Shown here piece by piece: positions 13,023 to 64,000 of a stretch of DNA of 64,000 nucleotides (within the stretch, counting starts at the first letter, position 1; each line of letters opens with the position of its first letter). Source of the DNA: Actinomycetota bacterium (GTDB lineage: Bacteria; Actinomycetota; Coriobacteriia; Anaerosomatales; PHET01); NCBI GenBank assembly GCA_029265315.1, contig JAJUJM010000004.1, positions 13,032 through 77,031 of the forward strand. Direction: 5' to 3'. Under the pieces are notes generated by a model. That model saw only the letters and a program-made list of their open reading frames with translations. It made no database searches and was not told where the DNA came from. The position numbers and the translations under genes were made by a program.

Positions 13023-13044
13023 CTTGAACACACCTCCGATGGTG

Positions 13045-13064
13045 CCTTGGTTTCCGACCAAGGC
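13045..13064 (-). promoter_or_regulatory. hairpin in rpmE 5' leader
   Basis: GCCTTGGT-ttccg-ACCAAGGC stem-loop just upstream of the rpmE SD. Function unknown. Confidence 0.25.
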
Positions 13065-20587: not shown

Positions 20588-21529
20588 CTAGAGCAGGCGC
20601 GCACCCCAACGGTCGATGGCCACCGCCTGAGGCAGACGCCGGGTACCAAGAGCGAGGATGCGCGACGCGGCCCGCTCAGCGATACCGCGGGCCAGCTCGT
20701 GCGCCGCGCGGTCCGTGTCACCGGCGACGAGCCCGATCACCGTCGGCCCCGCACCGGAGAGCGCGACACCGGAGGCGCCGGAGGCCCGCAGGATGTCGGC
20801 GACTTCTCGCAGGTCGCCTACGGCCGCCTCGCGGTATGGCTCGTGCAAGCGGTCCGCGAGCGCATCACCGAACAGCTCGGGGCGTCCCGCGGCGATGGAG
20901 GCGGCGAGCAGGCCCGCGTGTGCCACGTTGAAGGCGGCGTCGCGGTGCGGGACCGCCTCAGGAAGCATCGCGCGGGCCACGGACGTCGCGAGCTCCTTGG
21001 TCGCAGGCACGGCGACCACGGCGAGGCCCCGAGCGGGCTCGAAGCGGGCGCAGCGGGCGCGGCCCTCGACCGACCAGCAGACGGTGAAGCCACCGAACAG
21101 AGCCGCAGCGACATTGTCCGGATGCCCCTCCAGCTCGGCGGCGAGCTCCAGACGCCGCTCATCACCGAAGTCGGCGTCGGCCAACGCCTCGCCCAAGAGC
21201 AGACCACCGACGATCGCCGCGCTCGAGGAGCCCAGTCCGCTCCCGGTGGGAATGGTGTTCAGACAGCTGATGCGGGCCTTGAGCTCCGGCCTGCCCGCCT
21301 CGGCGAACGCACGGGCCATCGACCGGGCCACGACATTGTCCTCGCCCGTCGAGAGGGTGCCCGCGCCTTCGCCGCTCACCTCGACGCGCCACTCGGAGGC
21401 CAGCTCGGCTTCGAAGCGGTTGTGCAGGTCCAACGCCAGCCCGAAACTGTCGAACCCGGGTCCGAGGTTGGCCGAGGTGGCCGGAACGAGAACCGCTGCC
21501 CCCACGGCTGGCCTACAGGTCCTCGACAC
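20588..21529 (-). CDS. thrB: homoserine kinase
   Basis: GHMP kinase motifs PATSANLGPGFDS and PTGSGLGSSSAAIVGG. Overlaps the hom stop. Confidence 0.92.
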   Translation of the reverse strand: MSRTCRPAVGAAVLVPATSANLGPGFDSFGLALDLHNRFEAELASEWRVEVSGEGAGTLSTGEDNVVARSMARAFAEAGRPELKARISCLNTIPTGSGLGSSSAAIVGGLLLGEALADADFGDERRLELAAELEGHPDNVAAALFGGFTVCWSVEGRARCARFEPARGLAVVAVPATKELATSVARAMLPEAVPHRDAAFNVAHAGLLAASIAAGRPELFGDALADRLHEPYREAAVGDLREVADILRASGASGVALSGAGPTVIGLVAGDTDRAAHELARGIAERAASRILALGTRRLPQAVAIDRWGARLL

Positions 21530-22802
21530 GAATCACGGCGCCGACCTCACGGACCGCCTCGCTCGCGCCGATCTCGGCGAGCGAGGCGCGCACGTCGGCC
21601 TCGCGCGCCGAGTGTGTGACGAACACGAGCTCGGCGGTCTCAGCGCCCTCCTCGCCGCGCTGTATGACGCTTGAGAGCGAGACGCCATGATCCCCGAACA
21701 CCTTCGCGCACGCGGCGAGCACGCCCGGCGCGTCGACCACGAGCAGGCGGACGTAGTAGCGGGTCTGAAGCGTTGCGATGTCCCTGACGGGATGGTGCTC
21801 GGTGCAGGTGCAGCCCACGACCGGCCTGCACCCCGTCTGGAGGTCACGCGCGATCTCGACCAGGTCACCGACCACGGCGGAGGCCGCCGGCAGCGAACCC
21901 GCCCCCTCGCCGAAGAACATCGTCTCACCGACGGCGTCGCCTACGACGTAGATCGCGTTGTACACGCCGTTCACGCTGGCGAGCGGGTGTGTCTCGGGGA
22001 TCATCGTCGGATGCACGCGTATGTCGGTGCCCTCGGCCGTGCGGTTGGCGATGGCGAGCAGCTTCACGCGATAGCCCACTTGGCGCGCGTACTCGAGGTC
22101 GGCGGGCGCCAGCGCTCGGATGCCCTCAGTGGGCACCTGGTCGAGCGTCACGCGCGAGTTGAACGCGATGGAGGCGAGGATCGCGATCTTGGCGGCTGCG
22201 TCATGCCCGTCGACATCGGCGGTGGGGTCCGCTTCGGCGAATCCTTTGGCTTGCGCCTCTGCCAGCGCGGTCGCGTAGTCGAGCCCGTCCTCGCCCATGC
22301 GGGTGAGCATGTAGTTGGTGGTGCCATTGACGATGCCCATGACGCGGGTGATCTCGTTACTCGTCAGCGAGTGCTTGAGCGGGCCGATGATCGGGATGCC
22401 GCCACCCACGCTCGCCTCGAAGCGGATGTCCACACCTGCCGCCTCAGCGGCCTCCATGACCTCTTCGCCATGCGTGGCGAGCAGCGCCTTGTTCGCGGTC
22501 ACGACGGACTTGCCCGCCCGCAGGGCCGCGAGCACCACCTCGCGGGCGACTCCCGTGCCGCCGATGAGCTCGATGACGACATCGATATCCGGGTCCGCGG
22601 TGACCTCGAACGCGTCCGTGGTGCACGCCTCCGGGTCCAACCCGAGCGCGGCGAAACGCTCGGTCGCGCGGTCAGCGAACCTCGTCAGGCGGATGTCGAC
22701 ACCGGCGCGCCGCTGGAAGTCCTCGCCATGTCGCCTGAGGATCTCGACCACACCCGATCCGACGGTACCCAGACCGATCAGACCCACACGGATGGTTCGC
22801 AT
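21513..22802 (-). CDS. hom: homoserine dehydrogenase
   Basis: ATG at 22802 (MRTIRVGLIGLGTVGSGV...). A C-terminal ACT-like domain is present. 429 aa. Confidence 0.92.
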   Translation of the reverse strand: MRTIRVGLIGLGTVGSGVVEILRRHGEDFQRRAGVDIRLTRFADRATERFAALGLDPEACTTDAFEVTADPDIDVVIELIGGTGVAREVVLAALRAGKSVVTANKALLATHGEEVMEAAEAAGVDIRFEASVGGGIPIIGPLKHSLTSNEITRVMGIVNGTTNYMLTRMGEDGLDYATALAEAQAKGFAEADPTADVDGHDAAAKIAILASIAFNSRVTLDQVPTEGIRALAPADLEYARQVGYRVKLLAIANRTAEGTDIRVHPTMIPETHPLASVNGVYNAIYVVGDAVGETMFFGEGAGSLPAASAVVGDLVEIARDLQTGCRPVVGCTCTEHHPVRDIATLQTRYYVRLLVVDAPGVLAACAKVFGDHGVSLSSVIQRGEEGAETAELVFVTHSAREADVRASLAEIGASEAVREVGAVIRVEDL

Positions 22803-22928
22803 ATCGCTCGACGTCCTTCCTGCGAGGTGATGTCGGGTCGACCTTGTGGTTCGGCCCCTGAGGATGACGCCCGCTATTCTAACCGACCCACAGCAGCGGG
22901 CGCGCATGCGACGCGGGCATCCTGCCGA

Positions 22929-23339
22929 TCAGTGCGCCCTGCTCGGCGCCGTCTCGCCGGAAACCCAGACGAGGTACTCGGCGAGGTCGGTCTGGAAGGC
23001 CGAAGGGCCCTCGCCATGGAGCTGGCGCCGGTACTCCGCGGCAGCGATCAGGTCGCTCGGGTCGTGGCGTGCCGCCTCGACCCACAGGGCGAGCTGCTTC
23101 AAGTCGCCGCCGGACAAGCGGATCGCGGCGAGCATCAACCGGCAGCTCACCATGTCCGAGAGCTCCGGGTCCCCGCTCGGGTCCTCGCCCACCAACGCGG
23201 ACAGGATGACCGCGGCGGGCTGGACGGTCTCGCCCTGGAACGCGTCACGCAGGCGCGCGTCGACCACCTCGGAACGCCAGAACGGCCGCTTGAGCGTCAG
23301 CTCGTCTGCGAGCGGCGCGCCCGCCACACCGTCAACCAC
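22929..23339 (-). CDS. hypothetical protein (136 aa)
   Basis: GTG start preceded by a strong GAGGTGGGG SD, 3 nt after the lysA stop. I recognised no motif. Confidence 0.45.
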   Translation of the reverse strand: MVDGVAGAPLADELTLKRPFWRSEVVDARLRDAFQGETVQPAAVILSALVGEDPSGDPELSDMVSCRLMLAAIRLSGGDLKQLALWVEAARHDPSDLIAAAEYRRQLHGEGPSAFQTDLAEYLVWVSGETAPSRAH

Positions 23340-23342
23340 GCC

Positions 23343-24704
23343 TCACCCCACCTCACACTTCAGGAGGTCCTCGTAGGTCTCGCGACGGACCACCCAGCGC
23401 CATCCGCCGTCTTTGACGAAGACGACGCCCGGGCGCACCTGCTTGTTGTAGTTGCTGCTCATCGACTGGCAGTACGCACCGGTGGCGCAGACGCACAGCA
23501 CGTCGCCCACCTCGGGGCACTGGAGCGGCGCGTCGTTGACCACGATGTCTCCGCTCTCGCAGTGCTTGCCGGCGACGGTGGCCACCATCTCGCGCGGCCG
23601 GTCAGCCTTGTTCGCGATGAGGGCCTCATAGTGTGCGTCGTAAAGCGATGTGCGGATGTTGTCCGACATGCCGCCATCGACCGCGACGTACGTGCGGATG
23701 TTCGGGATCTCCTTGATCGAGCCCACCGTGTACAGCGTGACGCCGGCGTTCGCCACGATCGAGCGCCCGGGTTCGACCGCCATCGCGGGCACCGTGAGCC
23801 CGTGCTTCTCGCACTCCTCCTTGATGCCGTCGACGACGACCTTGCCGTAGTCCTTTATGGTCGAGGGCTCATCGGGAAGCCCGTAGGCGATGCCCAGACC
23901 GCCACCCGTGTCGAGCATGCGCACCTCGACGCCAGTCTCCGCCTTGATCTCGGCGATGAACTCCACGATGACCTCGATGGCTTTCGCGAAGCTGTGGAGC
24001 GCGAAGATCTGGCTGCCGATGTGCATATGGAGCCCGTCGAAATCGAGCCCCGGTAGCTCAAGCGCCCGCTTGACCGCCTGCATCGCAAGTCCCTGGTTGC
24101 GGCCGAACCCGAACTTCGAGTCCTCGGCGCCGGTCATGATGAAGTCGTGGGTGTCGGCCTCCACGCCCGGCGTGACGCGGATGAGGATGCGCTGCCTCAT
24201 GCCACGCTCGAGGGCGAGTGCGTTCAGGCGCTCCATCTCCTCGAACGAGTCCACGACTATGCGGCCCACGCGTGCGTCGAGACACTCTGCAAGCTCATCG
24301 GGGGTCTTGTTGTTGCCGTGGACATAGATGCGTTCCATAGGGAATCCGGCGCGCAGCGCGAACGCGAGCTCCCCGCCGCTGGACACATCCAGACAGCAGC
24401 CCTCTTCCGCTACGATCCTGACCATCGCAAGCGACATGAACGCCTTGCCCGCGTACACGACGTCGACGTCAGGCCAGTGGTAGCGGGTCCACTTCACGTA
24501 CTCCGAGAGCTGGTGACGGATGGTCGCCTCGTCCATGACGTAGAGCGCCGTACCCGCGTCACGCGCGAGCTCGACCGTGTCCACGCCTCCGATCCACAGA
24601 TGTCCGTCACGGACTTCAGCGGTCATGGGCAGAACGCCCATGAGGTCATGGCCGGTCTTGTGGTCGGCGACCGATGGCGGGCGGGCGGTGGACGGCTTTC
24701 CCAT
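23343..24704 (-). CDS. lysA: diaminopimelate decarboxylase
   Basis: Group IV PLP decarboxylase (YAGKAF, HMHIGSQ, CESGD). ATG at 24704 was chosen because of the AAGGGG SD; later ATGs at 24641/24626 are possible. Confidence 0.9.
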   Translation of the reverse strand: MGKPSTARPPSVADHKTGHDLMGVLPMTAEVRDGHLWIGGVDTVELARDAGTALYVMDEATIRHQLSEYVKWTRYHWPDVDVVYAGKAFMSLAMVRIVAEEGCCLDVSSGGELAFALRAGFPMERIYVHGNNKTPDELAECLDARVGRIVVDSFEEMERLNALALERGMRQRILIRVTPGVEADTHDFIMTGAEDSKFGFGRNQGLAMQAVKRALELPGLDFDGLHMHIGSQIFALHSFAKAIEVIVEFIAEIKAETGVEVRMLDTGGGLGIAYGLPDEPSTIKDYGKVVVDGIKEECEKHGLTVPAMAVEPGRSIVANAGVTLYTVGSIKEIPNIRTYVAVDGGMSDNIRTSLYDAHYEALIANKADRPREMVATVAGKHCESGDIVVNDAPLQCPEVGDVLCVCATGAYCQSMSSNYNKQVRPGVVFVKDGGWRWVVRRETYEDLLKCEVG

Positions 24705-24808
24705 GCTGAGACCCCTTACGGACGAACAGCGATTCGTATACACTAATCCATGGAGTTAGCTAATGCTATTTCATCGCCGGTTGGCGGTCAAATCCTCCGA
24801 GTACACCG

Positions 24809-58824: not shown

Positions 58825-58851
58825 GGGCCCCGTCCGCAGTGGACGGGGCCC
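58825..58851 (-). terminator. GC-rich hairpin terminator downstream of cytochrome gene
   Basis: Perfect 11-bp stem GGGCCCCGTCC-5 nt loop-GGACGGGGCCC, 33 nt after the stop at 58884. No clear U-tract. Confidence 0.5.
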
Positions 58852-58883
58852 CACAAGTCACACCGAGAGAATCAGTGTGCTCC

Positions 58884-59552
58884 TTACGGCAGACCCTTGA
58901 GCAGGAGCTCCCAGCCCATGGTCGTGCCGGATCCGTACGTACCGAGCGGCAGCGGAGACGTGGTGGTCGTCTTCGCGAACGCAGGATTGTCGCCGTTCCA
59001 GTACGTCGCATCGCCGTGACAATCGATGCACACGGAGTCCAGGTTCTCGACTGCGGCGTTCTCAAGAGCGCCGGAGTCAGTCTGAACCGCCGGGATGATC
59101 GACGTGCCGTTGCGGGTCTCGCCCGTCCACAGCGCGAAGTCGGTACCGCTGAACTTCGCCGCGTCGCCAAGCGAGATGGTATCGACCGTGGCGGTGGCAT
59201 TCCCGCCGTTGGTGGTGCGGGTACCGCCGAAGGCCACCGGCGTGCCGTCGAAGTCGACACCGTAGAGCTCGTCCTTCAGCATGTTCGCGCCGAGCGTGCG
59301 GTGCGGGTAGCTGAAGCCTCCGTCGATGCACTTGCCATTGAGGCCGGCGACCGCGCTCTGCTTCAGGTAGGACTGAGCGGCGTAGTTCGTCTTGCCGGAC
59401 ACCGGCGCGGTGATCGTGGCGGTGTAGGCCGCTGAGAAGTTCGAAGTGTCATCCGAGTGACACACGTCGCAGTTGCTCGCACCGATATGGCAGTTGCGGC
59501 AGTGCGGACCCTCGTTGTCGTCACGCCCGTCCCCATCGGTCCCGATGGGCAT
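58884..59552 (-). CDS. multihaem cytochrome c, C-terminal portion (3 CXXCH); probably continuous with 59562..60722
   Basis: Motifs CRNCH, CDVCH and CIDCH. No signal peptide and no SD. Same reading frame as the upstream ORF, separated from it only by TGA plus three codons. Confidence 0.7.
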   Translation of the reverse strand: MPIGTDGDGRDDNEGPHCRNCHIGASNCDVCHSDDTSNFSAAYTATITAPVSGKTNYAAQSYLKQSAVAGLNGKCIDGGFSYPHRTLGANMLKDELYGVDFDGTPVAFGGTRTTNGGNATATVDTISLGDAAKFSGTDFALWTGETRNGTSIIPAVQTDSGALENAAVENLDSVCIDCHGDATYWNGDNPAFAKTTTTSPLPLGTYGSGTTMGWELLLKGLP

Positions 59553-59564
59553 CTGGCGCGCTCA
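59532..59564 (-). other. in-frame TGA (59562-59564) plus downstream hairpin (59532-59549): candidate recoding (SECIS-like) element or nonsense lesion
   Basis: The mRNA reads UGA-GCGCGCCAGAUG-CCCAUCG-GGAC-CGAUGGG. The stem is 7 bp, the spacer is 12 nt, and the apical loop is G-containing. Confidence 0.35.
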
Positions 59565-60722
59565 ATGACGAGGCTGCGCGTCGTGAGCGTAAGCGAGCAC
59601 ATACGTACCGGTCGTGCTGTCGCTCGCGCTCGGCTTCCAGACCTCGGCCTGCTGCGTCGAAGCGCCGGCAGTACCGTCGTGGCAGTCGGTGCAGAACTCG
59701 GACTCGGACAGGAAGCCGCCCGTGCCCGTCGGCGAAGTGCCGCTGGCCGGCGCGAACGGGAAGGGGTTGTCGTTGTCGTTGTCCTGGTAACCGCCGTAGT
59801 AGGTGTCCGCAGGGCCAAGCGGCTCGACCCAGTTGATCGCGTACTTGTTCACACCATTGGTGGCCACCACGCCGAAGCCGGCCACATCCGTGTCCGTCTT
59901 CGTCTCCATCGCGTCCGTATGCGGGTTCTTCAGGAGCAGGAAGCGGCCGGACGGCCAGATCGGGCGATAGCGGAACGCGAACACGCCTGCGGTGTTGTTG
60001 CCGTCCCAGACGAAGTTGCCGTAATCGACGTCGATGCCCCACTCGTTGTCCTCGAGCAGACCGTCCTGGTCACCGTTGCCGAAGCCGGCCTTGATCGGCC
60101 AGTTGGCGGCAAGGGTGTCGAGCTGCGTCGTGGTCGGACGCCCCTGCTGCCCCGGGCCGACGAACGCGCGACCGGGGTCCGAGAACGTCGTCAGGATGCG
60201 AGCGGAGTTGCCGTGCGGGCTGTGGCAGTCGAAGCACGCGAAGCCCTCGGGGTCGCTGTAGGCCGGCTTGATGTCAGCCGGGGCGTTACCCTTGTAACCC
60301 AGCGTGTGTCCCGTGCCGAAACCCATGGTCGACGTGGCGATCGCCGACGCCTGCGCGACGTCGAACGCACCCGTACGGTAGTCGTTGTCCATCTGGATGT
60401 TGATGGTCGATCCGCCACCGCCGCCATGGCAGTAATCGCACGCGGCCTCACGGGAAGAAGCACGGAGCAGCTTGAAGCTACCTTCGGCATAGTGCGTGGA
60501 GTGGCAGTCAGCGCACTTGTTCGTGGTAGTCGTGTAGCCGCCGTGCGGACCCGAGAAGTAGCCGGTCGCGCGGGTGTACTGCAGCGGGTTGTTGTACCCC
60601 TCGGCGAACGCCGGAGCGACGCCAAGAGCCACGACAACGACCGCGGCGACGGAGACGAGCAGGATCCTCTTGATCACTGATGCCTCCTTCTTGCGGACTG
60701 AACGGAAAAGGCGCCTTGTCAT
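59562..60722 (-). CDS. secreted multihaem cytochrome c, N-terminal portion (4 CXXCH)
   Basis: ATG at 60722 follows AAAGGGGGTG; an alternative GTG at 60677 follows AAGGAGG. Signal peptide is ...IKRILLVSVAAVVVVALGVAPAFA. Motifs are CADCH, CDYCH, CFDCH and CTDCH. Ends at TGA 59562. Confidence 0.8.
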   Translation of the reverse strand: MTRRLFRSVRKKEASVIKRILLVSVAAVVVVALGVAPAFAEGYNNPLQYTRATGYFSGPHGGYTTTTNKCADCHSTHYAEGSFKLLRASSREAACDYCHGGGGGSTINIQMDNDYRTGAFDVAQASAIATSTMGFGTGHTLGYKGNAPADIKPAYSDPEGFACFDCHSPHGNSARILTTFSDPGRAFVGPGQQGRPTTTQLDTLAANWPIKAGFGNGDQDGLLEDNEWGIDVDYGNFVWDGNNTAGVFAFRYRPIWPSGRFLLLKNPHTDAMETKTDTDVAGFGVVATNGVNKYAINWVEPLGPADTYYGGYQDNDNDNPFPFAPASGTSPTGTGGFLSESEFCTDCHDGTAGASTQQAEVWKPSASDSTTGTYVLAYAHDAQPRH

Positions 60723-60818: not shown

Positions 60819-60848
60819 AGAATAGTGAATCTGATAACTAGGAATCAA
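60819..60848 (-). promoter_or_regulatory. candidate sigma70-type promoter for cytochrome gene
   Basis: Minus strand reads TTGATT-18 nt-TATTCT within the A+T-rich intergenic region. The spacer coincides with one arm of the 14-nt inverted repeat. Confidence 0.3.
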
Positions 60849-60870
60849 TATGTTTCGTTATCTGATTCAC
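60825..60870. promoter_or_regulatory. 14-nt inverted repeat (operator-like)
   Basis: GTGAATCTGATAAC (60825-60838) and GTTATCTGATTCAC (60857-60870). 13/14 positions are complementary, with an 18-nt spacer. Confidence 0.5.
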
Positions 60871-60871
60871 T

Positions 60872-60897
60872 AATACTGACGATTCGATTTCAGTATT
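60872..60897. promoter_or_regulatory. 8-nt inverted repeat
   Basis: AATACTGA-10 nt-TCAGTATT, immediately adjacent to the 14-nt repeat. Confidence 0.4.
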
Positions 60898-61016: not shown

Positions 61017-62444
61017 CTACTCAGCTATGCGGTATTCGGCTTGAAGCTGCTCGAGTGTGACGCGCTTCCCGGGCGCTTCCCTGTACGCTTCAGCATCATC
61101 ATCGTCCGCGACCACCAAGACGACCCGCGGCAGGAGCACTCGCTCAAGCCCTTGTGGCCGCATGGCGCGTGACAGGGCCCCGATCGGGTCCTCGCTCCCC
61201 TTCTCGCCAACAGCTGCGAGGTACTCCGCCAGAGCCACGCCCTCCTCGGTCACGTCTGCGAAACGCTCATACACCTCAGGCAACACGTGCAGCTTCCTTG
61301 AGACAGCGGCCAAGAGACGCAGCTGACCTTCGTCCATCGCGCGCTTCAGCGCTTCGTCAGTCGCGAACCAACGTTTCCTGCCGAGCACGAACGGCAGTAT
61401 CGCGAGCATGGCCAGCGGCACAAGCCACCACAGCCACGGGTTGCGGCGCAACACGTTGTCTTCCTCCGGCAGAAGCAGCCTCACGATCTGGACGCGGTCG
61501 TTGTACGTGTCGGTGATGGCGAAGGTCTCGCCCCCCAGGTAGGCGATCGACGTGGGGAGGTTGAAGCGGCCGTCGCTCTTGCCTTGGAGCTCCTCAAAGG
61601 TGTGGATGAGTCTTCCCGTGTCCGCGTCGAGGACCCTGATCGCATGCTTGAATCCGTCCAGCACGAACACACGTCCACGGTCGTCGAGCGCCACCCCTGT
61701 CGGCAGGCCATACTCGACCTTAGGGTCGTCCTGGAACCGACCGGGCTTCCCGTCCACCCACCGGACCGTGGCAGTCGTCTCCCCTTCCAATGCGACCCGC
61801 TGCACACGGTTGTTGTTGGAGTCGGCGACGATGAGCTCACCGCCCTGAGCTGGCACAGCGGAACGCGGGTAGTCGAACTGTCCGGACTCAAGTCCGCGCG
61901 TGCCGACCTCTCCTTGAAGCTCGCCTTGGTCTGACAGCAGGACCACCGGACCGAACGTCAACACCGCGACGCCGTCGGGCATGACCACCGGCGCCAGCGG
62001 ATTCAACACAGGGATCTCCCAGAGGAACTCGCCCTGCGTCGTGAAGCACAGAACCCTCAATCGCGAACGGTCCGCCACGTACACATGGTCCGCAGCGCGG
62101 TCGACGGCCACGCCTATCGGCACGAGCATCTGCCCCTGCTCAAGACCGCGCTCGCCCCACGTGCGGACCCAGTCGCCCCCGCGGTCGAACTCCACGATGC
62201 GCTGCGTGTCGCGCAACGTGACGTAGAAGTCGCCATCGTCCGCGGCCGCCAACCCGACCGGTCGCCTCAGATTCTCACCATTCGCCACATAGATCGAACG
62301 GACAGGGACCACGCCCGACGGAGCGCCGCCCTCCTGTCGCCGGTCCTCAGTGTCACCGGTCAGCCAGAAGAACAGCGCCGCGAGGCCGAGCAGCAAGGCC
62401 AGCAGCAGAACCAGGATCCACAACAGCGCTCGGTTGCTTCTCAC
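61017..62444 (-). CDS. bitopic-flanked NHL-repeat beta-propeller protein with cytoplasmic C-terminal domain
   Basis: N-terminal TM (LLWILVLLLALLLGLAALFFWL). Repeated NHL-like blades follow (PVGLAADDGDFYVTL, PIGVAVDRAADHVYVADRSRLRV, LIVADSNNNRVQRV, PTGVALDDRGRVFVLD, PTSIAYLGGETFAITDTYNDRVQIV). Then comes a second TM (WLWWLVPLAMLAILPFVLG) and a tail of about 130 aa. The GTG start overlaps the TPR gene stop (GTGA). Confidence 0.75.
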   Translation of the reverse strand: MRSNRALLWILVLLLALLLGLAALFFWLTGDTEDRRQEGGAPSGVVPVRSIYVANGENLRRPVGLAAADDGDFYVTLRDTQRIVEFDRGGDWVRTWGERGLEQGQMLVPIGVAVDRAADHVYVADRSRLRVLCFTTQGEFLWEIPVLNPLAPVVMPDGVAVLTFGPVVLLSDQGELQGEVGTRGLESGQFDYPRSAVPAQGGELIVADSNNNRVQRVALEGETTATVRWVDGKPGRFQDDPKVEYGLPTGVALDDRGRVFVLDGFKHAIRVLDADTGRLIHTFEELQGKSDGRFNLPTSIAYLGGETFAITDTYNDRVQIVRLLLPEEDNVLRRNPWLWWLVPLAMLAILPFVLGRKRWFATDEALKRAMDEGQLRLLAAVSRKLHVLPEVYERFADVTEEGVALAEYLAAVGEKGSEDPIGALSRAMRPQGLERVLLPRVVLVVADDDDAEAYREAPGKRVTLEQLQAEYRIAE

Positions 62445-63190
62445 TGTGCGTCACCGCCCTCGGGGGCACCGTGCGGGTTCGGCGTGGCGGTCGGCTCCGA
62501 GTACTCGACCCCCAAGCGCCGCAGCCCGGCGATGGCCTCCTCATTCCCGGGCAGGAACTTCAGTGCCTTCTTGTAGTTGTCGATCGCCTCGCCCTTCCTG
62601 CCGGCCTTCTCGAGTATCTGGGCGTACACGATCCCCATGTCCGCGGCAGCCGGATCGATGCGCAGGCCCGTCTGCATGGCTTTGATCGCCTCGTCGTAGT
62701 TGGCGTTCTCCGCAAGGATCTGGGCCAACAGGAAGTAGGGCTCCGCCTTGCTCACACCAGTGATCTTGATCTCAGCCCGAACGTGCTTCTCCGCCAAGTC
62801 AAGTTGTCCGTCCCGCACGTAGAGGGTCGCGAGCCTGAGGTTGTAGAACGGCTGTTTCTCGGCGTTCTTGACGGCCTCACGGGCGTGCCTGAATGCGTCC
62901 TCGGTCTTTCCCATGTCGAACTCGACCTCGGCCAATGACATCAGTGTCGCGGGGTCGGCCGGGTTGTTGTTCAACCCTTGCACGAGGAGGTCATAGTCCC
63001 GCTCGAGCGCAGAACGCGGCTCTCCGCTGAAAAGGCCACCGTTGAGCAGCAAGTAGACCAACACGCCGGTCAGGACGACGACGGTCACCGCGAGCACCAA
63101 CACCACTGCACGGTTGCTTCCGCCGACACGGCGGACTTTGGGCAGCGCACCTGCCACGGAATCACTCACCCTTCGAGATGTGGACGACAT
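62441..63190 (-). CDS. membrane-anchored TPR-repeat protein
   Basis: One TM (AVVLVLAVTVVVLTGVLVYLLL) followed by TPR repeats (LMSLAEVEFDMGKTEDAFRHAREAV, YFLLAQILAENANYDEAIKAMQTGLRIDP, IVYAQILEKAGRKGEAIDNYKKALKFLP). Confidence 0.75.
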   Translation of the reverse strand: MSSTSRRVSDSVAGALPKVRRVGGSNRAVVLVLAVTVVVLTGVLVYLLLNGGLFSGEPRSALERDYDLLVQGLNNNPADPATLMSLAEVEFDMGKTEDAFRHAREAVKNAEKQPFYNLRLATLYVRDGQLDLAEKHVRAEIKITGVSKAEPYFLLAQILAENANYDEAIKAMQTGLRIDPAAADMGIVYAQILEKAGRKGEAIDNYKKALKFLPGNEEAIAGLRRLGVEYSEPTATPNPHGAPEGGDAQ

Positions 63191-63266: not shown

Positions 63267-64000
63267 TCATCGGTACGGATCGGACTCATGGCACAACCCG
63301 CAGAAGGTGACCGCGTGACACCGGCAGCCCCCCGGGCCGTTGGCCGCCGCAGCGGCCCCGTGGACAGGAAACCATTGCGAGTAGGTGCCGTGCAGGTTGA
63401 CGACGTCGTGACAGGCGCATGCGTCCTGCCTCGTCGGCCTGGCGGTCTCGTGGCACTTCGCACACAGAGCGGGGTCGGAGTATGAGACGCCCGCGTGCTG
63501 GCCTGCGAAGGCCGGCGGATGCGGCAGCACCAGTCCGTGGCATTCGACACATGACCGATCGGTGCGTGCCGAGTGGCACCCCTTGCACGTCACCGGGGCC
63601 GCCGACACGCCCATCGGCACCCTCGTCGCGTCACTGTCTGAGGGCTTCCCGCTGATGTGGCAGGTGACGCAGTCCGCATCAGCGACGCTTCCGTCGTGAC
63701 AGTGCAGACAACGAGACATCACGGGGCGCACGATCGCCACGGTTCGACTGGCGACCGTCCGTGTCTCGTCCGCACTCGTCGCATGTCCCACGCCAGGGTG
63801 ACATGACAGACAGGTGCCTCCGGATTCGATGATGTCGCTGTGCCTGACCCTGATCCCGTTCGACTCGAGTGAACCCCCAGCGATCGCCTTGTGACACCGG
63901 ATGCACGCGCCGTCGGACACCGGTGACCGCGGCCCCTCCGAGATGAGGGAGGCAAACCCCGCAGCCGAGGCCTGCCATGCTCCGAAGACGCCCGGCTGCG
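63267..64000 (-). CDS. multihaem cytochrome c (at least 8 CXXCH), probably 5'-truncated by window edge
   Basis: Motifs CIRCH, CLSCH, CLHCH, CVTCH, CKGCH, CVECH, CAKCH and CGLCH within 217 aa. The track ORF starts at GTG 63920, but the frame stays open to 64000 and encodes a hydrophobic stretch (...FGAWQASAAGFASLISEG...) that looks like a signal or anchor. Confidence 0.8.
   Translation of the reverse strand, partial: QPGVFGAWQASAAGFASLISEGPRSPVSDGACIRCHKAIAGGSLESNGIRVRHSDIIESGGTCLSCHPGVGHATSADETRTVASRTVAIVRPVMSRCLHCHDGSVADADCVTCHISGKPSDSDATRVPMGVSAAPVTCKGCHSARTDRSCVECHGLVLPHPPAFAGQHAGVSYSDPALCAKCHETARPTRQDACACHDVVNLHGTYSQWFPVHGAAAAANGPGGCRCHAVTFCGLCHESDPYR

Follow-up and report, generated by a model that had tools for sequence, protein, structure and literature searches.

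A seven-haem cytochrome family of subsurface Gram-positive bacteria with a conserved in-frame UGA, very probably a selenocysteine codon

In this study we describe a gene located on the minus strand of a 64,000-nucleotide stretch of DNA (hereafter the window) of the Actinomycetota bacterium assembly GCA_029265315.1 (contig JAJUJM010000004.1, positions 13,032 to 77,031). Two adjacent open reading frames (ORFs), the first with four CXXCH haem-binding motifs and the second with three, are parts of one gene for a seven-haem c-type cytochrome, and the single in-frame TGA by which they are separated is very probably a conserved codon for selenocysteine (Sec, U). This reading is carried by the joint conservation of the UGA, of the reading frame downstream of it and of a hairpin, and by the occurrence of cysteine in place of Sec in paralogues, all of which were demonstrated together. 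In the mechanism that we propose, the UGA would be recoded by SelB and Sec-tRNA(Sec), directed by the stem-loop that begins 12 nt downstream. The product would be a c-type cytochrome of about 597 aa, exported through the Sec secretion pathway, with seven covalently bound haems and Sec at residue 372, and its host would be a Gram-positive Coriobacteriia bacterium of the OPB41/Anaerosomatales kind. Under selenium scarcity translation would terminate at the UGA, leaving a truncated four-haem form.

Results

Structure of the interrupted gene

The initial annotation of the window, made from the sequence alone, had proposed that one in-frame TGA joins a half with four CXXCH motifs to a half with three, and precisely this arrangement is seen on the minus strand (Table 1). 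The upstream ORF ends at the TGA, while the frame after it continues as ARQ-M, the methionine codon being at 59552, for 225 codons up to the TAA. Haem motifs 1-4 are invariant in the family alignments A1, A3 and A5, and motifs 5-7 are invariant across 39 full-length sequences. The N-terminal half is matched by the Pfam models Paired_CXXCH_1 (34.1 bits, with a cut-off of 20.6) and Cytochrome_C7 (31.0 bits, also above its cut-off). With seven CXXCH motifs, matches to haem-motif domain models and a signal peptide recognised by inspection, the protein has the features of a multihaem c-type cytochrome. No Pfam or NCBIfam model (NCBIfam release 20) matches the C-terminal half, and for the family as a whole only generic CXXCH domains are found in these collections.

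Translation probably starts at GTG 60677 and not at ATG 60722, the annotated start and the one giving the longest frame. A database protein of 371 aa (P0001), 100% identical, begins at this GTG, which is preceded by a Shine-Dalgarno sequence, and the residues KEAS found in extended calls of orthologues are this Shine-Dalgarno sequence in translation. From ATG 60722 the gene would comprise 612 codons with Sec at residue 387. The single protein of about 610 aa proposed initially is retained as a single protein, but its length, counted from the ATG, is revised to a probable 597 aa. In the signal-peptide region AlphaFold2 places a helix over residues 2-25, and the AFAEGYN junction is conserved among homologues.

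The extreme C-terminus, GWELLLKGLP (58887-58916), is nearly invariant in the whole family, its W, G and L being invariant; it could serve in sorting, anchoring or partner binding.

Table 1. Features of the cytochrome gene and of the genes upstream of it; positions are those of the window.
Feature	Position	Strand	Details
Seven-haem cytochrome gene, predicted selenoprotein	58884..60677	minus	597 codons from GTG 60677; Sec codon 372; TAA 58884-58886
Haem-binding motifs 1-4	CADCH 60501-60515, CDYCH 60426-60440, CFDCH 60222-60236, CTDCH 59679-59693	minus
Haem-binding motifs 5-7	CRNCH 59487-59501, CDVCH 59457-59471, CIDCH 59016-59030	minus
In-frame UGA, very probably read as Sec	59562..59564	minus	residue 372, context HDAQPRH-U-ARQM; from orthologue conservation
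SECIS-like element	59522..59560	minus	lower stem 59555-59560 / 59522-59527; upper hairpin 59532-59549
Shine-Dalgarno sequence GAAGGAGG	60683..60690	minus	5-nt spacer to the GTG start (60675-60677); read from the sequence
Predicted signal peptide MIKRILLVSVAAVVVVALGVAPAFA	60603..60677	minus	predicted cleavage before EGYN; judged by eye: KR n-region, hydrophobic core, AFA motif
Invariant block KCIDGGFSYPHRTLG (KCIDGGF block)	59289..59333	minus	invariant in alignment A3; C450 and an invariant His
G+C-rich hairpin, likely terminator without T tract	58825..58852	minus	32 nt after the stop codon; RNAfold -32.7 kcal/mol
NHL-repeat beta-propeller protein with N-terminal membrane anchor	61017..62444	minus	Pfam NHL, E = 8.6e-24
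TPR protein, upstream of the NHL gene	62441..63190	minus	Pfam TPR families
Multihaem cytochrome, 3' part, extending past the window end	63290..64000	minus	8 CXXCH visible in the translation

Conservation of the TGA codon

A search of 5.8 billion proteins yielded 173 relatives, 120 cluster representatives of which were listed and classified. Of these 120, 81 are called as ending at ...HDxQPRH, that is, at the position of the TGA in the window, and each of them has four CXXCH motifs; a further 24 read through this position with Cys at the Sec column, and the remaining read-through representatives have Y, L, R or H there or fall outside the motif pattern used. Seven CXXCH motifs are present in every read-through form but one, and the full-length homologues (570-790 aa) align along their whole length. 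When a profile was searched against 1.84 billion representatives, 59 clusters (50% identity) were matched at E <= 1e-30, and many of these matches stop at, or start just past, the Sec position.

At the DNA level, 73 genome loci and 51 metagenome loci were sampled, which gave 40 distinct contexts for the Sec column: 23 have TGA, 13 have TGC or TGT, four have other sense codons and none has TAA or TAG. The comparison of codons in orthologues that had been suggested as a check on the Sec option thus gives TGA in 23 of 23 orthologous contexts and Cys in the read-through homologues, as that option would have it. The TGA forms come from separate metagenome-assembled genomes and metagenomes of Coriobacteriia/Anaerosomatales and Ca. 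Aquicultor, and their protein identity ranges from 91% down to about 33%; Ca. Aquicultor secundus carries two TGA copies in tandem (locus L025, at 357 and 2794). Genomes with the TGA form include those of Parvivirga hydrogeniphila Es71-Z0120 (MX659_06960 and the gene after it), UBA2272 (DDXA01), HGW-Actinobacteria-7 (PHET01), La2_metabat2.009 (JBBRSD01) and Ca. Aquicultor secundus (PFFU01). An ordinary gene end would give TGA in all 23 contexts with p ~1e-6, a value that ignores the relatedness of the sequences. In the window itself TGA terminates 29 of the 53 genes, so it is an ordinary stop codon there and a reassigned genetic code is excluded.

In two of the loci a long Cys-type paralogue (about 700 aa) lies just downstream of the Sec-type gene (L008, at 5038 and 7737; L029, at 5125 and 7149). 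In the Sec-type copy L029:5125 the frame is broken by a 1-nt deletion immediately behind the TGA, a case either of decay or of an assembly error.

The downstream half as part of one protein

The two ORFs are one gene, conservation of the frame past the UGA being demonstrated directly. Downstream of the TGA the ratio of nonsynonymous to synonymous substitution rates (dN/dS) is 0.06-0.41, compared with 0.04-0.32 upstream, which indicates similar purifying selection on both sides, and the frame stays open past the TGA in every TGA copy except the decayed one in L029. The methionine after the TGA is also kept in the fused Cys-type proteins (C-x-R-Q-M) and is therefore a structural residue, and the Aquicultor copy L025:357 lacks any start codon from the TGA up to the next CXXCH.

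As the initial annotation had stated, the downstream ORF has neither a signal peptide nor a Shine-Dalgarno sequence; both statements were verified in the sequence, the part after the TGA lacking a hydrophobic N-terminus or other export signal and the sequence upstream of ATG 59552 (CGTCATTGAGCGCGCCAG) containing no purine-rich Shine-Dalgarno. A fragment of a c-type cytochrome that has no signal peptide cannot reach the extracytoplasmic haem-attachment system, and two independent genes are for this reason not credible. Among the recovered loci, no homologue was found with its halves separated or rearranged, nor was there one with a separately exported downstream gene, a possibility that had been named initially as one to be checked.

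In the databases the C-terminal pieces are entered separately as "hypothetical proteins" that lack a Pfam domain, and they make up at least 110 clusters. The motif C.DGGF is found in 109 of 120 separately called C-terminal halves, and some N- and C-terminal pieces bear consecutive locus tags (ACYC77_02000/02005 and HY876_03985/03990).

The stem-loop downstream of the UGA

A hairpin with the geometry of a bacterial selenocysteine insertion sequence (SECIS), beginning 12 nt after the UGA, had been pointed out initially; it is present, and its stem is extended by a lower stem (Table 1). The upper hairpin, CCCAUCG-GGAC-CGAUGGG, has 7 bp and the loop GGAC, which begins at nt 23 counted from the U of the UGA. 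The 48 nt from the UGA onward fold with -24.1 kcal/mol (z = -3.33), and none of 200 dinucleotide shuffles was as stable. In nearly all TGA copies a local hairpin begins 14-20 nt from the U of the UGA, with apical loops (GGAC, GUAC, CGGGU and GGUCA among them) that begin at nt 20-29, mostly at 23 or 26, and usually have a G within their first two positions. Criteria of the bSECISearch type place the apical loop of a bacterial SECIS roughly 16-37 nt from the UGA, with a G in the loop, and both the position of the stem-loop and the loop G agree with this.

The stems vary in sequence between the copies: CCCAUCG/CGAUGGG, GCUAUCG/CGAUAGC and GUAUCC/GGAUAC are found, as are CUGAACC/GGUUCAG, UUGAAUC/GAUUCAA and CUGUCCC/GGGACAG. 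Across 13 distinct hairpins 85 of the 91 stem positions (93%) are paired, and two to four canonical pair types occur at every position; as judged from these stems, the hairpin is maintained via compensatory changes. Pairs were counted on arms anchored on the hairpin and not on a whole-region consensus. When all SECIS regions were aligned and folded together (MAFFT/RNAalifold), no consensus structure emerged, since the hairpin occurs in two registers that differ by 3 nt. Some of the stem changes alter the peptide (PIGTDG, AIGTDS, VSGQDT, LNPGGS), and the peptide is partly shaped to encode the hairpin.

In Sec-type sequences the median energy of the best local hairpin is -9.1 kcal/mol, versus -3.3 kcal/mol in Cys-type and other non-Sec sequences (Mann-Whitney p = 1e-4, uncorrected for phylogeny), and the hairpin is mostly missing from Cys-type homologues. 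Compared with synonymous recodings, the real sequences were the more stable in 19 of 22 cases.

Gene neighbourhood and hosts

The order TPR gene, NHL propeller gene, Sec-cytochrome gene is kept in about 20 loci, with the NHL gene directly upstream of the cytochrome gene. In related genomes two more multihaem cytochrome genes lie upstream of the TPR gene, where the window has the partial cytochrome gene that runs past its end, and genes for CcsA, a Wzy-like protein and a Rex-type regulator also precede the module; it is followed by genes for a B12-radical SAM protein (TIGR04190), a UbiE-type methyltransferase and an amidohydrolase. Proteins of the TPR and NHL kinds commonly accompany the cytochromes of extracellular electron transfer in Gram-positive metal reducers (PMC10376724), and by analogy the module would have the usual make-up of the extracellular electron-transfer clusters of Gram-positive metal or sulfur respirers. 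One homologue (P0031) is encoded by the cultured Parvivirga hydrogeniphila Es71-Z0120, an obligate Fe(III) reducer; in the paper that describes Parvivirga and Anaerosoma, 17-18 multihaem cytochromes are counted and there is no mention of selenocysteine (PMC9686372).

On the other side of the cytochrome gene, the window contains at 54605-58590 genes for a B12-binding radical SAM protein (TIGR04190, 646 bits) and a TRZ/ATZ-type amidohydrolase, the latter resembling 5'-deoxyadenosine or aminofutalosine deaminase. These two genes follow the cytochrome gene in most related genomes, with the UbiE-type methyltransferase gene between them in L127-L130, and they may serve the cytochrome or quinone metabolism. 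A consensus terminator scan found nothing after the cytochrome gene; the hairpin at 58825-58852 is missed by it because it has no T run.

Upstream of the cytochrome gene, the AT-rich intergenic region holds a 16-nt inverted repeat at 60823-60872 (TAGTGAATCTGATAAC / GTTATCTGATTCACTA; 94% complementary, with an 18-nt spacer). Its half-site GTGAAnnnGATAAC is found again in L002, L007, L009, L013, L032, L077 and L078, at a distance of 150-250 nt upstream from the orthologous gene. The repeat is a candidate operator, and the Rex-type regulator gene mentioned above lies in the cluster of the related genomes L127-L129.

An Rfam scan of the whole window at the gathering threshold found only a tRNA-Thr and an L31-Coriobacteria ribosomal protein leader (13034-13064; 35.6 bits, gathering score 33), the latter being the sole taxon-specific RNA match. 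Together with the names given to the homologues, this leader assigns the window to Coriobacteriia of the OPB41/Anaerosomatales kind. Another group of ORFs in one frame and separated by TGA, at 21513-24743 on the minus strand (a lysA-like diaminopimelate decarboxylase, a 136-aa ORF with no Pfam match and a homoserine dehydrogenase), was considered and rejected, these being separate housekeeping genes.

Discussion

Alternative explanations and evidence against selenocysteine

Several observations weigh against the reading of the UGA as Sec. The genes selA, selB and selD and a tRNA-Sec were not found in the 64-kb window or in 128 related loci (0.91 Mb), all of which were searched with ARAGORN and by tblastn with the E. 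coli SelA, SelB and SelD; the Sec machinery is predicted to be encoded in the carrier genomes. At the Sec column Y, L, R or H is found in about 9% of the homologues, and the residue is thus dispensable as far as the fold is concerned. The advantage of the real sequences over synonymous recodings is modest (mean z = -0.95, with 4 of 22 individually at <= 5%), and the propensity to form a hairpin is therefore partly due to the encoded peptide; in a few copies (L079, L025 at 2794 and L015) the hairpin is weak. No Rfam SECIS family matches the hairpin region (E <= 10), as would be anticipated for bacterial SECIS elements, of which each gene family has its own. Finally, AlphaFold2 models of a Cys-type full-length homologue and of the N-terminal half of the window protein have a predicted local distance difference test score (pLDDT) of about 60, and a Foldseek search against the PDB returned no match; with models of low confidence and an empty Foldseek result, any structural placement of Sec is unsupported.

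Some of these points would suit a selenium-free and possibly partial readthrough, in which Trp, Cys or Arg would be supplied by a near-cognate tRNA, with the hairpin as a generic stimulator and with four- and seven-haem isoforms as the outcome. Hairpin geometry alone cannot separate SECIS-dependent recoding from stimulated readthrough, Sec machinery is missing from the loci searched, and truncation to a four-haem product that has a signal peptide is plausible whichever mechanism applies. Such readthrough is nevertheless opposed by the presence of Cys, the classic counterpart of Sec, at exactly the Sec column in homologues, by the fact that TAG or TAA never replaces TGA in the 23 contexts, and by the loop position and G-rich loops, which fit the rules for a bacterial SECIS. 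Conserved readthrough of such a kind is not known as an established mechanism in bacteria, and we consider this explanation very unlikely. Still less probable are two real genes, a four-haem cytochrome ending at the TGA and a three-haem protein produced by termination-reinitiation at the AUG 9 nt downstream. Although most copies have this AUG (ARQ-M) after the TGA and two genes are predicted by all annotation pipelines, the downstream product could not reach haem attachment, its methionine is conserved in fused Cys-type proteins as well, one Aquicultor copy has no start codon to offer, and the halves are never separated or rearranged in homologues.

A recent nonsense mutation, making the gene a pseudogene, or a sequencing or assembly error was also among the options raised initially. 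Nothing specific to the window gene speaks for it, the only related case being the frame-breaking deletion in L029:5125, while 23 distinct contexts, drawn from assemblies made independently, all have TGA at this column, 81 of the 120 listed clusters end there, and the downstream dN/dS indicates purifying selection. The conservation of the TGA and this downstream selection exclude the nonsense-mutation, base-call-error and pseudogene options, to which we accordingly give next to no weight. Recoding of the UGA as selenocysteine in a single seven-haem cytochrome is the reading that we retain.

Relationship to known cytochromes and selenoproteins

The initial annotation regarded a Sec-containing multihaem cytochrome as unusual, a view that in part no longer holds: MccSep/ExtKL (GSU2937-2936) of Geobacter sulfurreducens, a five-haem selenoprotein polysulfide reductase, was characterised in 2026 (PMC13510729; PDB 9WT8; NCBIfam NF040886). 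Because of this precedent, Sec multihaem cytochromes are known to exist and to be catalytic. In MccSep, Sec325 adjoins a His/Cys-ligated haem (PMC13510729). The window protein is similar to MccSep/ExtKL in having a signal peptide, a UGA that splits two annotated ORFs, a SECIS-like stem-loop directly after it and Cys-type homologues, and also in a conserved extra Cys outside the CXXCH motifs, which in MccSep ligates the catalytic haem next to Sec. The two proteins differ in that MccSep/ExtKL has five haems, about 450 aa and the Sec context DG-U-P, whereas the window protein has seven haems, about 600 aa and the context PRH-U-ARQM. The hosts of the former are Desulfobacterota and Nitrospirota, and its gene neighbours are extHIJ porin and rhodanese genes, in contrast with the Gram-positive Actinomycetota and the TPR and NHL genes of the window family. 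Although MccSep (9WT8) was in the PDB set searched, it gave no match to the sequence or to the family profiles at E <= 10.

In a 2026 review the cytochrome-type selenoproteins are grouped into three families, ExtKL, GSU2204 and OTR (PMC13188914). The GSU2204-family CXXCH protein (NF041027) and the tetrathionate-reductase-family octahaem cytochrome (TIGR04315) also combine Sec with CXXCH motifs, but neither their models nor NF040886 were matched at E <= 1 (NCBIfam release 20) by the full-length protein and two Cys-type homologues. As far as sequence and profile comparison can tell, the window protein belongs to none of these three families. No published description of this cytochrome family was found, nor was any literature on Sec in these taxa, including in the supplement of the OPB41 paper.

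The gene set of the window resembles clusters of Thermincola, Carboxydothermus and Dethiobacter (PMC10376724), in which a TPR protein, an NHL beta-propeller and secreted multihaem cytochromes are likewise combined, and OmcE-type nanowire clusters also include beta-propeller proteins (bioRxiv 10.1101/2025.10.22.684050; PDB 9YUQ, 7TFS). The haem-motif contexts CxxCHxxH (CxxCHtpHg) and FCxxCHDGxxG (sEFCxxCHDGxaG) are OmcE-like. Sequence and profile searches of the PDB gave only non-significant motif-level matches to NrfB and OmcE, the similarity to the latter (7TFS, 9YUQ; E = 0.03-0.6) being limited to the haem-motif contexts. For the cytochromes of the Gram-positive TPR/NHL clusters and for OmcE no Sec has been reported.

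Possible role of selenocysteine

For seven haems there are only six invariant His residues outside the motifs in the 39 full-length sequences, and the Sec-type proteins have an extra invariant His immediately before Sec. The sole invariant Cys outside the CXXCH motifs is C450 (C465 in the numbering from the ATG), and the block that contains it may supply a haem ligand. The Sec column itself is occupied by U, C, H or Y across the family members. On account of the shortfall of His, the His before Sec, the composition of this column and the extra invariant Cys, Sec is probably located at, or adjacent to, a haem whose distal ligation is unusual. There it would be either the nucleophile of a catalytic site, beside a haem with non-His ligation as in MccSep, or an axial ligand tuning the haem. 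The invariant non-motif Cys and the one haem without an invariant distal His also allow a possible analogy with the catalytic, His/Cys-ligated haems of TsdA, SoxAX and DsrJ, sulfur enzymes that have no sequence relationship to the window protein.

A more specific proposal, which we put forward as speculative and rather unlikely, is that Sec and the preceding invariant His lie on the distal side of one haem in a cell-surface cytochrome of Gram-positive iron or sulfur respirers. If this were true, the protein would hold either the first natural selenolate-ligated haem or a second catalytic centre made of Sec and haem, one that evolved independently. Subsurface Anaerosomatales would in that case need selenium for extracellular respiration, and the selenium supply would toggle between the truncated four-haem and the full-length seven-haem product.

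Conclusions

In conclusion, the gene described here very probably represents a previously unlisted family of Sec-containing seven-haem cytochromes of subsurface metal-respiring Gram-positive bacteria. Sec multihaem cytochromes were experimentally established only in 2026 and for one family, MccSep (PMC13510729), and the present one would be the second, with no detectable homology to the first and with a different haem count and Sec context. In public databases at least about 80 protein clusters (90% identity) are split into four-haem and three-haem hypothetical proteins. Such split annotation distorts the haem counts and the cytochrome inventories that are used to predict extracellular electron transfer, and it conceals the predicted selenoprotein from selenoproteome surveys. 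The hosts are Gram-positive Actinomycetota that are dominant in some deep-subsurface habitats, and with Parvivirga hydrogeniphila as a cultured carrier the prediction of a selenoprotein in these organisms is directly testable.

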